Shown: positions 15,236-22,952, counted from the stretch's first letter. The stretch is DNA of 64,000 nt from an uncultured archaeon (GCA_964558645.1 CAZLEV010000001.1:61568-125567), one strand, 5' to 3'. Notes: generated from the letters alone by a model not told the origin. Translations and numbers: made by a program.

Positions 15236-16657
15236 CTAGGTGATTCCATGCTGATCGCCTCTTATTCGTCTTCTGAGATTGAGTCTGATCTCATCCATCT
15301 TGGATGCCACCCTGCTTTTCTCCGTCCAGAAGCCCTCTATCTCCTCGAAACCGTGCACGTCCCAGTAGAGTGGGCATCCTCCGAAGCAATAGCTGAAGTA
15401 TTCACAAGCCTTGCAACCCTCAGGAGCATAGTCCTTTGCTCTCCAGAATCTGGAAGCCCGATTATACCATACCTTCTCGAACCCGTCGTGAAGAAGGTCT
15501 CCGACCGGTTCGCTGAAGCTGGAGCATGGGAGGAGTCTTCCCTCTGCATCGACTGAGAGAAGACCATCACAACACGCGCAACTCTTTGCTCCCAATCCGT
15601 GAGCAATGGGGTTGAAGACGCAAACAGGTGTGGGAGCATACCAGACGAACTGAACTCCTTTCTTGCTGGCCCTCTTCTTCACTTTTCGCACAATGTCTCC
15701 AATCTCCGTGTACTTGATTTGGAGTTCATCTCTCAGCTTCGCCGCTGTCCCAGTATAGATTACCATATTCATGCTGAAATAGGTCAGGCCCAGCTCATCA
15801 GCGTGGAAGTCTACTAGCTTTTCAAGATTGTCTACATTAGGTCTGCAGATTGTTGTGTTGCAGTGAGTGTAGATGTCGGTTTTCCGAAGGTTCTTGATAC
15901 CCTCTACCGTCTGTTCAAAGGCGCCCGGGATTCCAACGATGTAGTCGTGAGTCTCTGCGTCAGCGCCTTCTATGGATACTTGTGAGCTGTTCAGCCCTGC
16001 CTCAACGAGTCCTGCAACGAACGATTTGTCAGCACAGCGCCGGCCATTCGTTATCAGATTGACACGGAGCCCCTTTCCTCTTCCGTGCTTGATCAGCTCG
16101 AACAGGTCGTTTCTGAGTGTGGGCTCTCCGCCTGTGAAAGAGAGCGATGGAACATGAGCATCATCAGCTATGATGTCTATGACACGTTTGACATCCTCGG
16201 TTGTCATCTCGCCCGATTCTCGGAATGGGGAATATGCATAACAGAACCTGCACTTGTTATTGCAGCGGTAAGTCACGGCTATCTCGCTGAGTACCGGATA
16301 CTTGATTTCGCCAGTTCCGAACGGAACAATCTTTGCTGTACGATAAGTGTAGACATTTTGGTTTCCGCTTACCATATTCTGTAAATCGTCCACAAATGCT
16401 GCCAGGTCATTGAGAACCTGCTGTTTGTCAGCGCCATGATTCTCTGTAAAATAGTTCACAACGCTCTCCGGACCCTCTCCTTCAAGGAGCATCTTGAGCA
16501 TGAGCATCCCTGTCCTGTTCAGATGCATGACCTTGTTGGGCCTCAAGATTAGGAGATTGTCTTCGGGGCGAGAGAAGAAGTAGTCTCTCACCTCTTCCAT
16601 GAATCTTGGTATCCATTTCAGGTCCTCAAGTGTGTACTGGTACTCTGAAACAGGCAT
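15236..16657 (-). CDS. PqqD(RRE)-fused radical SAM/SPASM peptide maturase
   Basis: N-terminal PqqD-like LNRTGMLMLKML...DLAAFVDDL, radical SAM motif CNNKCRFC, FTGGEPTL, ITNG, and SPASM CACC...GRLLPC...CKACEYFSYCFGGCP. Confidence 0.9.
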   Translation of the reverse strand: MPVSEYQYTLEDLKWIPRFMEEVRDYFFSRPEDNLLILRPNKVMHLNRTGMLMLKMLLEGEGPESVVNYFTENHGADKQQVLNDLAAFVDDLQNMVSGNQNVYTYRTAKIVPFGTGEIKYPVLSEIAVTYRCNNKCRFCYAYSPFRESGEMTTEDVKRVIDIIADDAHVPSLSFTGGEPTLRNDLFELIKHGRGKGLRVNLITNGRRCADKSFVAGLVEAGLNSSQVSIEGADAETHDYIVGIPGAFEQTVEGIKNLRKTDIYTHCNTTICRPNVDNLEKLVDFHADELGLTYFSMNMVIYTGTAAKLRDELQIKYTEIGDIVRKVKKRASKKGVQFVWYAPTPVCVFNPIAHGLGAKSCACCDGLLSVDAEGRLLPCSSFSEPVGDLLHDGFEKVWYNRASRFWRAKDYAPEGCKACEYFSYCFGGCPLYWDVHGFEEIEGFWTEKSRVASKMDEIRLNLRRRIRGDQHGIT

Positions 16658-16689
16658 CTTGAGCCAGTGATTGATTATGGTGACTTAAG

Positions 16690-16718
16690 CCTTGGTATCG
16701 TGACTACGGATAGCAAGG
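16690..16718. promoter_or_regulatory. Imperfect inverted repeat in the divergent promoter region of the radical SAM gene and the CHSA operon
   Basis: CCTTG-G-TATC-GT...AC-G-GATA-G-CAAGG. Confidence 0.3.
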
Positions 16719-16779
16719 ACCTGAAACGCTTATCTTTGCTTACGTCAGTTAGAAGACAACGCTTAGGAGAGAGTCAACA

Positions 16780-17175
16780 ATGACCACCGGTGAAATTAAA
16801 CTCCCATATGGTACGATAACTGACAAGAAACTCGAGATGCACTTCAATGCATATGATATCGATTTGCCCGTGATAGCCTCCGGAATTCGTGAGAGGATGG
16901 ATGTTCTCCGAGAACTCGATGTGGCATTTGCAGGATTTGGGACCGAGGTTCCTCAGAACGTTACTCAGCAGAATCCTGCAATCATCAAGGCCTTCTTTGA
17001 ATTCACAGGCACCGCGGGTGATGCGCAAGTCATAATGAAGCGAGTCTATCACATTGTCTGGTGTGGCATGATACAGGAGTTCCCAGATTTGATTGATTGG
17101 GCTCAGGCCAAAGCAGACTTGTCGAATCTGACCTACGCTCAGGCAGAGATCATGAGGGCAAGAAGGAGCGAGTAG
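16780..17175 (+). CDS. Hypothetical cytoplasmic protein
   Basis: 131-aa ORF with AGGAG upstream and protein-like composition; no family recognised. Confidence 0.75.
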   Translation: MTTGEIKLPYGTITDKKLEMHFNAYDIDLPVIASGIRERMDVLRELDVAFAGFGTEVPQNVTQQNPAIIKAFFEFTGTAGDAQVIMKRVYHIVWCGMIQEFPDLIDWAQAKADLSNLTYAQAEIMRARRSE

Positions 17176-17192
17176 TGGGGCCGAGACTTCCG

Positions 17193-17294
17193 ATGCCTGA
17201 AATAGAGGTTTCCGGTCTTCTACTCGGACTGCTTCATTGTCACTCAGCACAGGATGAAGGAATTCTTCGGAAGATAGCACAAGAGGTCAATTAG
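17193..17294 (+). CDS. Putative 33-aa peptide containing CHSA (MPEIEVSGLLLGLLHCHSAQDEGILRKIAQEVN)
   Basis: ATG 17 nt after the upstream stop and TAG 12 nt before the next start, so it fills the intergenic gap. It contains the same CHSA tetrad as the tail of the downstream protein. Confidence 0.35.
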   Translation: MPEIEVSGLLLGLLHCHSAQDEGILRKIAQEVN

Positions 17295-17306
17295 AGCAGA
17301 GAGTAC

Positions 17307-19481
17307 ATGGGAGAGAAACGAATGAAGAGAAGATACGTCGCAGGTCTACTCAGTCTGTTCATAGTCGGGATGATTGCATCCTCCAATACGGCTAGTGGTT
17401 CAGCAGAACTTGCAGCAGATCCGACAATCAACAGCGTCTATGTTGATGTTGTCGTCCTACAGAACGGCAGAATCAATGTGACTTATTTCATCACTTTTAC
17501 CGCAGCGAGTGGTGGGCTTGGTGGATTCGACCTATTCGGGATCCAAGAGAGCAGTGTATATGACTCAAACCGTGCCTATGTAGAATGGGGTGGCTCAAGA
17601 TACTCCCTTATCGTGGATAAGGTTTCTCAAGGCTACAAACTGGATTGGGTGCCCCGTACTCCTGAAGGTGAACAGGTCCTGGTAGTCTTTGGATACTTCA
17701 GCACGAACAGGATAATCGAACAGACCACAGGAGAGTACACTGTTGAAGGGTCCTCGGAACCCGTCACGGGTGACTTCGGTGTTCTCAACTGGGCGCCTGT
17801 GCAGTGGAGTATCGATGTGCTGTATGAGAATGTACGTCTGGTTTATCCGATTGAGATGGATGAGGCGTGGATAGAGTCTGGGGGTGGGATTACTTCCGAA
17901 GGTGCACTATATGCCGGATACGTGGAGGACTACCGACAGGGCATCCTCTCCTCGGGTGAGACCCTTCGGGATTACGATGAGAACAACCTTCTCGCATATC
18001 CTTCAGCCCCAGATACAACTCCCCGCAACTTCAGTGTTAGTCTGGCAGCTGACCCCGCATACGCATATGACAAGTTGCAGGTATTTCAGTACACGAACTG
18101 GTCGTTCTATGCCGACCATGTAGAACCAGGGGCTCTTGGTGTTGTAGGTGATACCTACGTTAACGTGGATGCTGATACCAATTTCGAGTATGAGTTAGTT
18201 GTTTTCAATTTCGGTGATAGCACATTGTCCAATGTAGAAGTCACTCTAGGACTACCTGACAATTTGACTCTGATCTATGGAGCGCTCGAAACATACATTG
18301 GGAATCTTGCGGGTGGCCAGAGCGAATACCTAACCTATACGTTTAGGGCTGATAACATTCCTGACGTACTAACAGTCATCTTTCTTGTGACAGGAGAGAA
18401 CAGTGAGGGTTCTGTGGATGGGACCTTTACAGTCGACGTTTACGTAAGGGAGTACATCCCGCCCCTGATACCACCGGATCTCCTCATAATTGGTATATCA
18501 GGGATTATGGCGCTCGGCATCCTCTATTACGTCTATAAGAAAGTCACATATTCGTACGGGGCCAAGTGGACTGCAGATGAGACCACTTATAGCTATGAGA
18601 GCCCTGAGATTGCAGTTGAGACCTATGGAACCCCTGGGACGGTTGCAGAGCTAGACCCCGTCGAGTCCGCTTTCTTTGTCAACACGAGCAGACAGAAACT
18701 TGTCACGATGATACTCATGTCCTGCGTCAAGAAGGGGGCCGTCCGGGTGATTTCTTCTGAGCCATTGAAGCTCTCGGTGACCGGCGTCAAGTTCGAGGAA
18801 TTGACCTACTACGAGGAGCTATTCCTCAAGGCTATCAAGGACAATGAGTTAGATCCAGAGCTGGTCGATGAGATGATTGATCAACTTGGAGAACGCGTCC
18901 AGAAGAAGTCTTGGGATGCGGATTTCGAGGCAACCAAAAACCGTCATGAAGAGATGGTCGAAGGGGCCTGGGAAGAGCTCGAGGCCAGTCCCACAATCGA
19001 TGGCAGAACTGACTACTACTTCGATAGAAGGTATCATGATTCTTGGGCCTGGTACTGGTTGTATATGCATCCGCGGCATGACACAAGAATCGGTGGTGTC
19101 TTCAGGGATACTGGTGGCTCAATCTCTCCCCCTGATATTCCAGAGTGGTTCAGAGGCGTTGCTGATGCCACCGGGCATGCGATCAGTGGCGCGGGACGAG
19201 TAGTAGGTGATATAGCAACTACGACTGGCCAGATTATGTCAAATGTCACAAGCACTATCGGTGAGGTCATGAATGGCGTTGCTAGCATCATCAGCGAGCC
19301 GCTGAAACCAATCGTTGAGGGTACTAGTCGCTGCGTATCACATGACGCATGCCACTCGGCATGTGTGACTCATGATGCATGCCACTCGGCTTGTCACTCG
19401 GCATGCCACAGTGCTTGCGTGTGTCATAGTGCATGCCATTCTGCCTGCCATTCAGCGTGTGTCAGCGGAGGATTTCGCTAG
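17307..19481 (+). CDS. Single-pass membrane protein (DUF2207-like plus Ig-like domain) with Cys/His-rich CHSA-repeat C-terminal tail
   Basis: Signal peptide, beta-rich ectodomain (VDVVVLQNGRINVTYFITF; YELVVFNFGDSTLSNVEV), TM LLIIGISGIMALGILYYVYKK, DUF2207-like ELDPVESAFF...SCVKKGAVRV...LTYYEELFL, and tail ending CHSACVSGGFR. Confidence 0.85.
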   Translation: MGEKRMKRRYVAGLLSLFIVGMIASSNTASGSAELAADPTINSVYVDVVVLQNGRINVTYFITFTAASGGLGGFDLFGIQESSVYDSNRAYVEWGGSRYSLIVDKVSQGYKLDWVPRTPEGEQVLVVFGYFSTNRIIEQTTGEYTVEGSSEPVTGDFGVLNWAPVQWSIDVLYENVRLVYPIEMDEAWIESGGGITSEGALYAGYVEDYRQGILSSGETLRDYDENNLLAYPSAPDTTPRNFSVSLAADPAYAYDKLQVFQYTNWSFYADHVEPGALGVVGDTYVNVDADTNFEYELVVFNFGDSTLSNVEVTLGLPDNLTLIYGALETYIGNLAGGQSEYLTYTFRADNIPDVLTVIFLVTGENSEGSVDGTFTVDVYVREYIPPLIPPDLLIIGISGIMALGILYYVYKKVTYSYGAKWTADETTYSYESPEIAVETYGTPGTVAELDPVESAFFVNTSRQKLVTMILMSCVKKGAVRVISSEPLKLSVTGVKFEELTYYEELFLKAIKDNELDPELVDEMIDQLGERVQKKSWDADFEATKNRHEEMVEGAWEELEASPTIDGRTDYYFDRRYHDSWAWYWLYMHPRHDTRIGGVFRDTGGSISPPDIPEWFRGVADATGHAISGAGRVVGDIATTTGQIMSNVTSTIGEVMNGVASIISEPLKPIVEGTSRCVSHDACHSACVTHDACHSACHSACHSACVCHSACHSACHSACVSGGFR
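19332..19478 (+). repeat. Coding repeat of 7x CHSA and 2x CV(S/T)HDA (11 Cys and 9 His in 49 aa)
   Basis: Read directly from the DNA. Ser codons of the CHSA units vary (TCG, TCG, TCG, AGT, AGT, TCT, TCA). Confidence 0.95.
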
Positions 19482-20237
19482 ATGCCCCAGTCAATCATGA
19501 CAATCTTCCATATGAGTGATGTGCACATTGGCGAACAGGGGGTCAAGATTGATGACTTTCTGAGAATCTTGGATGGTGTGGAGAAGAAGTCGAAGGCCAG
19601 GACCGAGCCCCTTCTACTGATCACTGGCGACCTGACCTCTGAGGGTCTCAGGGAGGAGTATGAAGCATTCCATGAGGCTGTTGATGGTGTCGACGTTCCC
19701 ATGATCATTGTGCCGGGGAACCACGACGAGCGGAACTACGGGACAGCTCACTTCGAGGAGCTCTTTGGCGAGCGGTTCACTCGCCATGAAACAGAAGATG
19801 TTGCATTGTTCGCCATTGATAGCTCCGAACCTGATAACGATGCAGGTCACGTTGGCAGGGCGTACTATATGCAGATACGCGACTTCTTCGGTCTAGCGAA
19901 GGGGAAGATCAAGATTCTTGCTCTGCACCATCATCTTCTGCCTGTTCCGCACACCGGTCGAGAACACAACGTGGTGGAGGACGCAGGCGATGTGCTTGGG
20001 ACTCTTCAGGTATCAAAGTGCTCTCTGGTCCTCAACGGTCATCGACATGTGCCGTGGATGTGGCGTCTCAATGAGATGGTTCATTACACTACTGGAACTC
20101 TTCTCTCTCGGAGAATCCGAGGTGCAACCACTCAAGTCTACACACGGATAGACCTAACGAGAAACGATGCCACGTTCAATCTGGTTCAAATAGATGGAGC
20201 TGAGCGTGTTCTGGGGCGAAGCGAGCTCGTTGTCTAG
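19482..20237 (+). CDS. Calcineurin-like metallophosphoesterase (CpdA/Icc family)
   Basis: SDVH, TGDLT, PGNHD, LHHH and NGHRH motifs. The ATG directly abuts the previous stop codon. Confidence 0.9.
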   Translation: MPQSIMTIFHMSDVHIGEQGVKIDDFLRILDGVEKKSKARTEPLLLITGDLTSEGLREEYEAFHEAVDGVDVPMIIVPGNHDERNYGTAHFEELFGERFTRHETEDVALFAIDSSEPDNDAGHVGRAYYMQIRDFFGLAKGKIKILALHHHLLPVPHTGREHNVVEDAGDVLGTLQVSKCSLVLNGHRHVPWMWRLNEMVHYTTGTLLSRRIRGATTQVYTRIDLTRNDATFNLVQIDGAERVLGRSELVV

Positions 20238-20273: not shown

Positions 20274-21257
20274 ATGAAATCTAATATATCTGGAGAACGA
20301 CGCCTCATGATTGTCGAAGTCCTCATCATGTCAACCTACTACGGCATCAAACTCAGACTTGAGTACTTGCCACAGGTTGTGGATTGGGACACCATTCGGC
20401 AGGTTGGAAAGAGAACGCACACAATGGACCCGGTCATGGAACATGGCCCGAGTGAGATTCGGGTATACTATGCCAAGCAGATGGGTTCTGACGGATTATG
20501 GAGGCACTTCGGCATAGCACGGAGAAGGCCCTTTGTTGTAATGGTAGTTGGTGATGAATCGGAAGGCCGAAGCTCCGTCACAGACAAAGCACTATCCGTG
20601 TGTAGCGAAGTGGTCAGTGCTACCGATGGCAAGGCACTCAAATCCATTTCCTCAAGTCGACGGAAGCTACTTGCCCGCAGGATAAACGACCAAACCATCG
20701 ACTATGTGAGGCTTGTCATGTTTGGGGAGGCCGGGTCCGGCAAGAGCTCGCTGTTCTCTATGCTCACCTCGGGAGATATCACTGTTGAATATCGCCCATC
20801 AGTGAGGGCAGTTGCTGCCCCCAATGCAGGCCAGCTTCAAGCGATTCTCGAGAAAAACAAGCCCTATGAGTTGGATGAGTGGTACATGGTTGCGAACAAG
20901 TTGCTGACTCTCTATGACCTTCCAGGATCCACTCACTACAGGAAGCTGTGGACTTCTTATCTTAAGAGAGCCGATGTGGGAATCATTGTCCTGAAGAGCG
21001 ATAAGACTGGAGTGGCCCGTGCAAAAGGGGTCCTTGAATCACAATCTGGAAGCCTTCCAAAGCATGTCATTGCAGTTGCGAACTACCAGGATTTGGAGGA
21101 TGCTGTGCCGCCACTGACAATAGAACGATTCTTGGGCGTTACTACCTACGGCATGGTGGGTACCGATCTAGACCGCATCGAGCAGTTCCGTGACATTGTG
21201 AAGACGGCGTCAGTCTATCAAGTCGACTCTTCTTCTTCAGTGCTTCGCTCTTATTGA
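20274..21257 (+). CDS. Arf/Rab-like small GTPase with extra N-terminal domain (start may be at 20328)
   Basis: G1 GEAGSGKS, G3 YDLPG followed by YRKLWTSYLKRAD, and G4-like VANYQD. Confidence 0.8.
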   Translation: MKSNISGERRLMIVEVLIMSTYYGIKLRLEYLPQVVDWDTIRQVGKRTHTMDPVMEHGPSEIRVYYAKQMGSDGLWRHFGIARRRPFVVMVVGDESEGRSSVTDKALSVCSEVVSATDGKALKSISSSRRKLLARRINDQTIDYVRLVMFGEAGSGKSSLFSMLTSGDITVEYRPSVRAVAAPNAGQLQAILEKNKPYELDEWYMVANKLLTLYDLPGSTHYRKLWTSYLKRADVGIIVLKSDKTGVARAKGVLESQSGSLPKHVIAVANYQDLEDAVPPLTIERFLGVTTYGMVGTDLDRIEQFRDIVKTASVYQVDSSSSVLRSY

Positions 21258-21725: not shown

Positions 21726-22952
21726 GTGGCTATGAACGAGGCTGAAGAGTTTGTCAGGGTCTGTGGGAAAGTGGGGAACTACTCAAAGCGAATCACCGGT
21801 AATAGCATTGTCGACGCATATTTCGGCCCCCAAGAACTGGCACCTGCCTTACAAGATGAGCGTCAGTCCCCTGATGAATTGCTACATGAACTGGGTATTC
21901 TCTTGGATGAATGCAGAAATCGGCTGGCTCCCGAGCTGCGTCGTGAGTACATGCTAGGCGAGATACAATCTATGCAGGTGTTGGTCAGCTGGCTTGCAGG
22001 TAAGAAGATGTCTTACGCGGCCTTGGTGAAAGGACTCTTTGGCATTCAAATGACAGGCTTCTCGGATTCGGATCTCGTTGATGCTACTGGCGTACTACAG
22101 GACCATCTTGCAAAATACCCGGGAAACGACCTCAAGGAGAAGGTGCGACAGTTCACAGAGAAGAGTCAGGTCAGAGGAGAAGAACTCAGGAGTCTTATCA
22201 TGGGCGAGCTACAAGAGAAGACTCGGGAAGTGGGGGAGATGTTCAAGACTCAAGTATTCTCGCAGATTGGAGAAATGGTTTCTGATAATGGAGTCAAATA
22301 CGAAACAACTCAGAATGAGCCTTGGACTGGATACAATTATTATCAGGGCGACTATCGCTCTATCAATTGCTTCAACGTTGATCGTGCATTCATTAGAGAT
22401 AGATTGCTCGGTGTTGTTTACCATGAGTATGAGCACCACGTATCCAATCTCTGGCGCGAGAAGGCATACAAGGAAAGAAATTGGACCGAGTTGAGTATTG
22501 TTCCACTTCACACTGGAAGGTGTGTCATCTCCGAGGGCACAGCTGATACTGCCAGAGATTTCCTAGGGATCAGAGTAGACAGTCCTGGTAAGAAGGCTGT
22601 CGATGTTTTATATGCGCTCAGACGGATGGTCAATATCAATGCAGCAATAATGCTCAATCAAGAACAGCGGTCATTCGATGAAGTGATTGAGTTCGTTCAA
22701 GAAAGAGGACTTTTCTCTCGGGAGACTGCAGAGAAATCACTAAGATTTGTCAAGCGCAAGAGAAACGATGGTCGACCAAACCTGTGGGCGCCGTACGTAT
22801 TCAACTACTCCATAGGCCGAACTCGGTTTGTTTTGCCAGCATTTGAGAGGGCAAGAGCAGAAGGGGAGCTTACAAGATTTTTCCAGACAGTATACCTGAA
22901 TCCTTTCGCGCTGTCAAGCAGAACCTGGCCTGGGGCGTTTGACTGGCTCTGA
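21726..22952 (+). CDS. Gluzincin metallopeptidase-like protein (DUF885-related)
   Basis: VDAYFGP N-terminus, HExxH (HEYEH), downstream SEGTA third ligand and YVFNY. Confidence 0.65.
   Translation: MAMNEAEEFVRVCGKVGNYSKRITGNSIVDAYFGPQELAPALQDERQSPDELLHELGILLDECRNRLAPELRREYMLGEIQSMQVLVSWLAGKKMSYAALVKGLFGIQMTGFSDSDLVDATGVLQDHLAKYPGNDLKEKVRQFTEKSQVRGEELRSLIMGELQEKTREVGEMFKTQVFSQIGEMVSDNGVKYETTQNEPWTGYNYYQGDYRSINCFNVDRAFIRDRLLGVVYHEYEHHVSNLWREKAYKERNWTELSIVPLHTGRCVISEGTADTARDFLGIRVDSPGKKAVDVLYALRRMVNINAAIMLNQEQRSFDEVIEFVQERGLFSRETAEKSLRFVKRKRNDGRPNLWAPYVFNYSIGRTRFVLPAFERARAEGELTRFFQTVYLNPFALSSRTWPGAFDWL

Follow-up and report, generated by a model that had tools for sequence, protein, structure and literature searches.

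In an uncultured, Thorarchaeota-like archaeon, a 64,000-nucleotide stretch of DNA (GCA_964558645.1 CAZLEV010000001.1:61568-125567, here called the window) carries at 15236-19481 a radical S-adenosylmethionine (SAM) enzyme gene facing an operon for a membrane protein that ends in a Cys/His-repeat tail. The system is a real and strongly conserved one that is so far uncharacterised, and its best explanation, to which we assign a probability of roughly 55%, is that the enzyme is a peptide- or protein-modifying maturase which crosslinks the cytoplasmic tail of the neighbouring membrane protein, the product staying attached. According to the open reading frame (ORF) listing the interval comprises three genes, namely a 473-aa enzyme (15236..16657, minus strand), a conserved 131-aa protein (16780..17175, plus strand) and a DUF2207-like type-I membrane protein of 724 aa (17307..19481, plus strand), the presumed substrate. 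The enzyme gene is divergent from the 131-aa ORF, with 122 bp between them. The operon facing it consists of the 131-aa gene, the membrane protein gene and a metallophosphoesterase (19482..20237, plus strand; Pfam Metallophos), whose start is the base right after the stop codon of the 724-aa gene. ORFs and Pfam agree with an earlier reading of the sequence alone (the original prediction), in which a radical SAM/SPASM gene with a PqqD-type recognition element of peptides that are ribosomally synthesised and then modified post-translationally (RiPPs), or RRE, diverges from the operon of the membrane protein; to that description should be added that the operon begins with the 131-aa gene at 16780-17175 (+).

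The 724-aa protein ends exactly in ...SRCVSHDACHSACVTHDACHSACHSACHSACVCHSACHSACHSACVSGGFR, and the translation of 17307-19481 (+) gives the (CHSA)n C-terminus just as it had been quoted. The tail proper, RCVSHDACHSACVTHDA(CHSA)3CV(CHSA)3CVSGGFR, is encoded at 19329..19478 (+) and holds 13 Cys and 11 His. The last 50 residues are near-invariant in 12 genomes from the same family, while the protein as a whole is 54-64% identical there to that of the window. At the codon level, 48 of the 50 tail positions keep one amino acid across 11 Thorarchaeota genomes, whose proteins are 51-64% identical overall, and every codon position of the tail uses 2-6 synonymous codons, both Ser codon families included. 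Synonymous change is saturated; no other part of the protein is as constrained as the tail, which is under extreme purifying selection. Since the synonymous codons vary and TRF reports only a 12-bp x 2 array at the tail, the repeat appears to be held by selection on the peptide and not by slippage of the DNA. The repeat-unit logo of 153 distinct tails reads C, H (93%), S (75%) or D (17%), and A (94%), with 5-18 Cys per tail, and the intact C-termini of homologues all end (ACH[S/D])n-ACVSGGxx. A simpler (CA)n-type tail, such as GGGGCACACACACACAGGGR, is found in other Asgard families, and in two Promethearchaeota proteins the two tail types stand one after the other. Cys and Ala are the only residues common to the (CA)n and (CHxA)n tails, which points to a chemistry based on Cys and Ala (e.g. 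Cys-S to Ala-C), and the conserved His of the CHxA type suggests a metal-binding ladder.

The membrane protein has two hydrophobic segments only, aa 11-29 and aa 391-411, the second followed by YKK. An AlphaFold2 (AF2) model on 80 relatives, with a mean pLDDT (predicted local distance difference test) of 81, comprises a beta-rich, extracellular beta-sandwich ectodomain (aa 38-381, 17418..18449 (+), pLDDT >90), a single transmembrane helix (aa 390-415 in the model, aa 391-411 at 18477..18539 (+) by hydrophobicity and AF2), a folded cytoplasmic domain with winged-helix-like and helical parts (aa ~440-600, 18624..19106 (+)), and a poorly modelled, low-confidence segment (aa ~603-714) ending in the tail. 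Residues P433, L449, E453, E503, W536 and D539 of the cytoplasmic region are conserved family-wide. The two hydrophobic segments, the YKK after the membrane helix and the AF2 topology together place the tail in the cytoplasm, as had been predicted; this is where an oxygen-sensitive radical SAM enzyme works, and the location speaks for modification of the tail. The architecture, with signal, beta ectodomain, membrane helix, cytoplasmic winged-helix-like part and low-complexity tail, is DUF2207-like. At the level of sequence models the likeness to DUF2207 holds weakly, for 23 of the 80 relatives match PF09972 (best 25.4 bits, cut-off 24.4 bits), and the window protein itself is unmatched at E<=0.01. 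The cut-off of TIGR04222 (43 bits) is not reached in this set, where the best score is 29.2 bits (P0048) and where 12 of the 80 relatives, but not the window protein, match at E<=0.01.

The structural model also gave matches of the ectodomain to eukaryotic proteins. Its first part (aa 36-267) aligns with the lumenal domain of yeast/human Ost1/ribophorin I with Z 16.1 and a root-mean-square deviation of 3.1 A over 187 residues at 8% identity, the next unrelated group being well lower (Z ~12), and the second part together with the membrane helix (aa 273-423; within 17418-18539) aligns with TRAP-beta (Z 12.8). On the strength of these models, DUF2207-like proteins may be linked by fold to translocon-associated subunits of the eukaryotic endoplasmic reticulum, or the matches may reflect no more than a common beta-sandwich.

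The 473-aa enzyme has the features of the radical SAM superfamily, of its SPASM subgroup and of enzymes with a PqqD-like RRE. In Pfam it matches Radical_SAM (PF04055) at aa 128-283 with 89.7 bits (cut-off 29.5), PqqD (PF05402) at aa 37-93 (16379..16549, minus strand) with 31.2 bits (cut-off 23.4) and SPASM (PF13186) at aa 363-419 with 21.7 bits (cut-off 21.5). The CX3CX2C motif, CNNKCRFC (C132/C136/C139), is invariant in 70 orthologues, and so are seven SPASM cysteines (C346, C360, C378, C415, C418, C424 and C428); the N-terminal PqqD/RRE block is kept across the same set. With GRLLPC and CKACEYFSYCFGGC (Gx4C and Cx2Cx5Cx3C) the enzyme shows the complete seven-Cys SPASM signature (Cx9-15Gx4C ... 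Cx2Cx5Cx3C ... C), which serves two auxiliary 4Fe-4S clusters, and the SPASM region as a whole, delimited from the sequence, the invariant columns and the Pfam match, spans aa 346-428 (15374..15622, minus strand). None of the curated NCBIfam models reaches its cut-off on the enzyme. Scores were 149.8 bits for AhbD (cut-off 500), 140.4 for NirJ2 (500), 129.5 for PqqE (381) and 81.6 for Tes (450) and, among peptide maturases, 93.8 for the ACGX system (TIGR04340; 400), 88.6 for PapB (NF047865; 340), 51.9 for the SCIFF maturase (TIGR03974; 425), 44 for the CrpC family (TIGR04463, rSAM_vs_C_rich; 525) and 15.5 for the CXXX-repeat maturase (TIGR04115; 350). Membership in the curated families of the cofactor or lipid enzymes AhbD, NirJ2, PqqE or Tes was rejected on these scores and on the fused RRE of the enzyme; AhbD and NirJ have no fused RRE. 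On the wider question raised in the original prediction, whether the rSAM clusters with such enzymes, its best HMM matches are AhbD, NirJ2 and PqqE, each a long way short of its cut-off. The nearest solved structures, PqqE, Tes, SkfB, BlsE and SuiB, are all distant.

The distribution of the two genes was followed with profile searches in a phylum sample of 301 Asgard genomes from 30 families, in which rSAM orthologues (full length, >=390 bits) are cleanly apart from paralogues (<=187 bits). The same 9 of the 30 families carry both the tailed protein and the rSAM orthologue, and the other 21 carry neither. In the family of the window (f1), both genes occur in 54 genomes and in G000, neither gene in 15, and 7 further genomes, which are fragmented, are discordant; both genes are present in 26/26 genomes of f5 and in 11/11 of f22. 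The four f1 cases of a tail apparently without the rSAM are all assembly breaks, with a 100-N scaffold gap inside the membrane gene in one (G243) and fragments of the membrane gene at contig ends, also without the 131-aa gene, in the other three (G188, G200 and G255). Thorarchaeota are the closest named relatives, in keeping with the Asgard-like host that had been proposed.

A search for homologues with the cytoplasmic half gave 89 proteins of Thor-, Odin-, Hel- and Promethearchaeota and of numerous bacterial phyla, and an exhaustive profile search gave 243 clusters (50% identity) at E<=1e-30. The placement in an Asgard-like archaeon stands for the host, then, but the system is not special to it and is widespread in bacteria. 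Four bacterial contigs share a co-directional cassette of the tailed membrane protein, a radical SAM/SPASM enzyme, which is 41-44% identical to the window enzyme over its full length, and an unannotated protein of 330-420 aa. When every GTDB species, represented by a single genome, was scanned with a degenerate DNA pattern for 3.5 CHxA units, at least 120 stretches matched. Among the matches listed, 89 loci, mostly bacterial, were informative, that is, with a true homologue of the membrane protein and enough flanking sequence; an rSAM orthologue adjoins the tailed gene in 85 of them, and the other 4 genomes carry it elsewhere (430-593 bits). About 20 of the 120 listed matches were discarded as unrelated tandem ACHA-type repeats or other reading frames (e.g. 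in Kuenenia, Streptomyces and Nonomuraea). The co-occurrence expected in the original prediction is thus found both in the 9 of 30 Asgard families and in the 85 of 89 adjacent loci, and the contrary case that it had named, a tail kept in genomes without this rSAM clade, did not hold in any instance, as each came down to an assembly break or to an rSAM elsewhere in the genome. The full cassette is also present in a cultured bacterium, Desulfobulbus alkaliphilus DSM 24258 (L110).

The composition of the cassettes bears on the fate of the tail. The third bacterial gene (~330 aa, to 420) encodes a protein with membrane segments, which falls in unnamed clusters only in the Atlas and which has no homologue in the genome of the window by hidden Markov model (HMM) search. 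At the examined loci, Pfam shows no peptidase, protease, exporter or transporter family in the conserved cassette of either domain, which favours modification in place. A tethered precursor, whose modified tail would be cleaved off as a free and possibly exported RiPP, would follow RiPP logic in having a C-terminal Cys-rich core behind a long "leader", and the bacterial third protein, being a membrane protein, might conceivably process the tail or export it; we nevertheless hold this to be very improbable, because the tail is invariant and not hypervariable, and no peptidase or transporter accompanies it. The cytoplasmic location of the tail, and the large folded domains that are conserved along with it, argue against a released product as well.

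Some bacterial loci have further features. Two of the four cassettes adjoin defence-type genes, one (L042, 4486-7685) directly beside TIR_2 and AAA_22 genes and the other (L043, 5529-7465) directly beside DUF4276 and AAA_15/21 genes. Assignment of the cassette proteins to a defence system was rejected, PADLOC showing only generic similarity of the rSAM core to viperins. In Pseudomonas mucoides P154a (L125, 803-1231) a 142-aa protein ending ...GNWGYCHSACHGACHGACHGARGWR is not a homologue of the membrane protein and is followed by a 498-aa ORF; judged by sequence, this may be another kind of CHxA-repeat system.

A maximum-likelihood tree of 75 rSAM orthologues, rooted on two paralogues, divides by tail type and not by domain of life. 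One clade (SH-aLRT 96) contains Asgard enzymes only, which are the partners of (CA)n tails; the other (SH-aLRT 94) holds the partners of (CHxA)n tails and unites Thorarchaeota, a second Asgard family, one Heimdall record, one Thermoproteota record and all the bacteria. From these two clades it follows that the Thorarchaeota enzyme is nearer to bacterial enzymes with the same tail than to the Asgard (CA)n enzymes. The predicted co-variation of enzyme and tail is accordingly seen, though as one split only. Taken with the co-occurrence and the adjacency in archaea and bacteria, this argues that the cytoplasmic (C-H-S/D-A)n tail is probably the substrate of the enzyme, in line with the proposal that a protein tail and not a free peptide is modified.

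The same evidence decides largely against an alternative in which the tail is a native, unmodified Cys/His module for metal or Fe-S binding and the rSAM is linked to it by another substrate, a cofactor step or regulation. Thirteen Cys and 11 His in 50 residues, absolutely conserved, would suit such a module, as would the rSAM genes of one Asgard family (f12), which lie apart from the membrane gene and at times occur where none is found, and the similarity of the enzyme to cofactor enzymes in its top HMM matches. Against this stand the perfect phyletic match at family level, the adjacency in the 85 of 89 informative loci among the matches listed, usually tight and co-directional, an enzyme clade that follows tail type, and a fused RRE, which indicates a peptide substrate. 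We consider the native module distinctly improbable.

With the tail as substrate, the enzyme would dock on the cytoplasmic part of the membrane protein, and 5'-deoxyadenosyl radicals would abstract hydrogen from one residue in each repeat, which would then be joined to the adjacent cysteine sulfur. The outcome would be a ladder of small intramolecular thioether rings, of sactionine or ranthionine type, in a tail that would remain part of the membrane protein, with no natural product released. Speculatively, a crosslinked tail of this kind, lined with His, would be suited to binding metal or to signalling. In the established RiPP literature, RRE- and SPASM-containing enzymes acting on Cys-repeat substrates mostly make thioethers. 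That thioethers are what this enzyme forms has, in our estimate, a little less than an even chance. Other chemistry on the same tail, such as formylglycine, Cys heterocycles or thioamides, epimerisation, or C-C/C-N crosslinks with the invariant His, is unlikely by comparison, even though within the repeat unit His (93%) and Ala (94%) are conserved like Cys, no sacti- or ranthisynthase model reaches its cut-off on the enzyme, and the SPASM group includes anSME and cofactor enzymes. Related TIGR04222 Cys tails have, moreover, been proposed for the non-thioether chemistry of MNIO enzymes (PMC12452194). What tells against it is that the (CA)n-tailed relatives, the partners of the sister rSAM clade, are without any His, and that the RRE- and SPASM-containing enzymes described so far on Cys-repeat substrates yield mostly thioethers (PMC13692751).

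Several observations weigh against a crosslinking maturase acting on this tail. An invariant His and extreme conservation are unusual for RiPP cores and fit a native metal-binding site equally well. The enzyme fits no characterised family, and its top HMM matches, AhbD, NirJ2 and PqqE, are cofactor enzymes, all far below cut-off. The co-variation with tail type is a single split and so reflects one evolutionary event, not a statistical result. Finally, in family f12 the rSAM is present in 19/19 genomes and the membrane protein in 8 only, on different contigs; two f12 genomes gave no membrane protein even with a query from the same family, the metagenome-assembled genomes of f12 being 72-91% complete.

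It is useful to compare the system with published ones, the closest of which is CrpA/CrpC of Methanococcus voltae, where the RRE-rSAM-SPASM enzyme CrpC forms ranthionine crosslinks on the 28.8-kDa Cys-repeat protein CrpA (PMC13692751, 2026); QHNDH is named there as another modified protein. Both systems are archaeal and RiPP-like without an obvious protease, and they share a three-cluster RRE-rSAM-SPASM enzyme, a C-terminal Cys-repeat region on a whole protein and a role that is possibly metal-related. However, CrpA is soluble and has 17-residue repeats with C-X-X-Q/D motifs, as against membrane-bound four-residue CH(S/D)A units, and CrpC belongs to TIGR04463, the model on which the window enzyme scored 44 bits against 525. 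A further parallel is QhpD, an rSAM-SPASM enzyme which forms Cys-to-Asp/Glu thioether bridges in QhpC of quinohemoprotein amine dehydrogenase. As in the proposed system, the modified subunit stays functional as a protein, but QhpC, here compared by description only, is small and soluble and has another sequence context. The CXXX-repeat system resembles that of the window in having a target Cys at every fourth residue and an adjoining radical SAM/SPASM maturase, and PF27846 ("tSAM_targ_Cxxx_rpt") weakly matches the tails of bacterial homologues. Among the CXXX-repeat models, TIGR04114 is unmatched at E<=10, TIGR04117 gives at most 15.3 bits against 50, and TIGR04116 has no match on the cassette genes, including the bacterial third gene. 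The curated CXXX targets are also small (a 98-position model), unlike the 500-900-aa membrane proteins of the window family. Membership in the CXXX-repeat, CrpC, SCIFF, ACGX and PapB families was rejected, since all models are below cut-off or unmatched.

On the side of the substrate, TIGR04222 membrane proteins with Cys-containing C-terminal tails have been proposed as substrates of MNIO (DUF692) enzymes (PMC12452194). These TIGR04222/DUF2207 proteins, to which the sequence similarity is weak, share with the window protein a Gly/Ser/Cys-rich C-terminal tail beside a RiPP-type enzyme gene. They are, however, multi-pass and mostly actinobacterial, with an MNIO partner and tails predicted to be periplasmic, whereas the window protein is single-pass with an rSAM partner and a cytoplasmic tail, and has in its family an exact CH(S/D)A or CA unit. 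A RiPP-type enzyme that tailors a protein tail is an already published idea, and the candidate new system of the original prediction was in this respect worded too strongly, both because rSAM-SPASM crosslinking of a whole protein is published (PMC13692751) and because Cys-tailed TIGR04222 membrane proteins had already been put forward as substrates of RiPP enzymes (PMC12452194). In the literature, no description was found of an rSAM-linked family of single-pass CH(S/D)A membrane proteins.

The 131-aa protein is the most constant of the neighbours. It is 62-95% identical in 13 Thorarchaeota loci, always directly upstream of the membrane gene, and the two stay paired in a genome (G021) where they lie 6 kb from the rSAM; homologues occupy the same upstream position in 7 bacterial loci. 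Its AF2 model has a pLDDT of 86. Pfam, NCBIfam, PDB sequences, Foldseek and VIA gave no notable match (best fold Z 7.8, below 8), and the Atlas gave sub-0.9 leads only. An antisense ORF of 168 aa at 16774-17280 (-) was rejected as a gene, its conservation being below that of the sense 131-aa frame, and a 33-aa ORF with one CHSA at 17193-17294, not conserved even within the genus, was taken as a chance match. In (CA)n-tail Asgard loci (L039, 2838-3218; L174, 7418-7804) the position of the Thorarchaeota 131-aa gene, directly upstream of the membrane gene, is occupied by a zinc-ribbon protein of ~126 aa that ends ...CPYCG...VKW. In family f12 (L041, 9144-9848; L169, 3957-4673) a conserved protein of ~235 aa, not Cys-rich, lies directly downstream of the rSAM.

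Further downstream in the window, the metallophosphoesterase is a neighbour specific to Thorarchaeota, absent from the 120 pattern-derived, mostly bacterial loci. In most Thorarchaeota loci its gene adjoins that of the membrane protein or overlaps it, which suggests that the two are translationally coupled. An Arf/Roc-like GTPase (20274-21257) is probably not part of the system, since it is kept in just 4 of the 13 Thorarchaeota loci. A 408-aa protein at 21726-22952 has no Pfam family and keeps its synteny in most Thorarchaeota loci; as a counterpart of the bacterial third gene it was rejected, the hhalign probability of 0.4% marking the two as unrelated.

If the tail is indeed crosslinked by its neighbouring enzyme, the system would constitute a large family common to bacteria and archaea, with 243 clusters and with carriers in 9 Asgard families and in at least 120 species genomes of the two domains, in which the cytoplasmic tail of a membrane protein is the target of a radical SAM enzyme of RiPP type. 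Crosslinking by rSAM enzymes, known for peptides and a small number of soluble proteins, would then reach proteins anchored in the membrane, and enzymology would gain a short, sharply defined substrate motif, open to experiments independent of uncultured Asgard archaea by way of the Desulfobulbus alkaliphilus cassette. The poorly understood DUF2207/TIGR04222-like proteins would at the same time acquire a biochemical handle. A bolder proposal, in our judgement unlikely in its full form, is that the rSAM turns the (CH[S/D]A)n tail, tethered to the membrane, into a protein-derived poly-thioether/His ladder of a new kind, which would serve as a dedicated cytoplasmic metal-binding, redox or signalling module in a receptor-like protein with the ectodomain fold of Ost1/ribophorin I; the module would be old enough for bacteria and several Asgard lineages to have it in common. 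Such a ladder module, if true, would give proteins of the DUF2207/TIGR04222 type their first mechanistic role.

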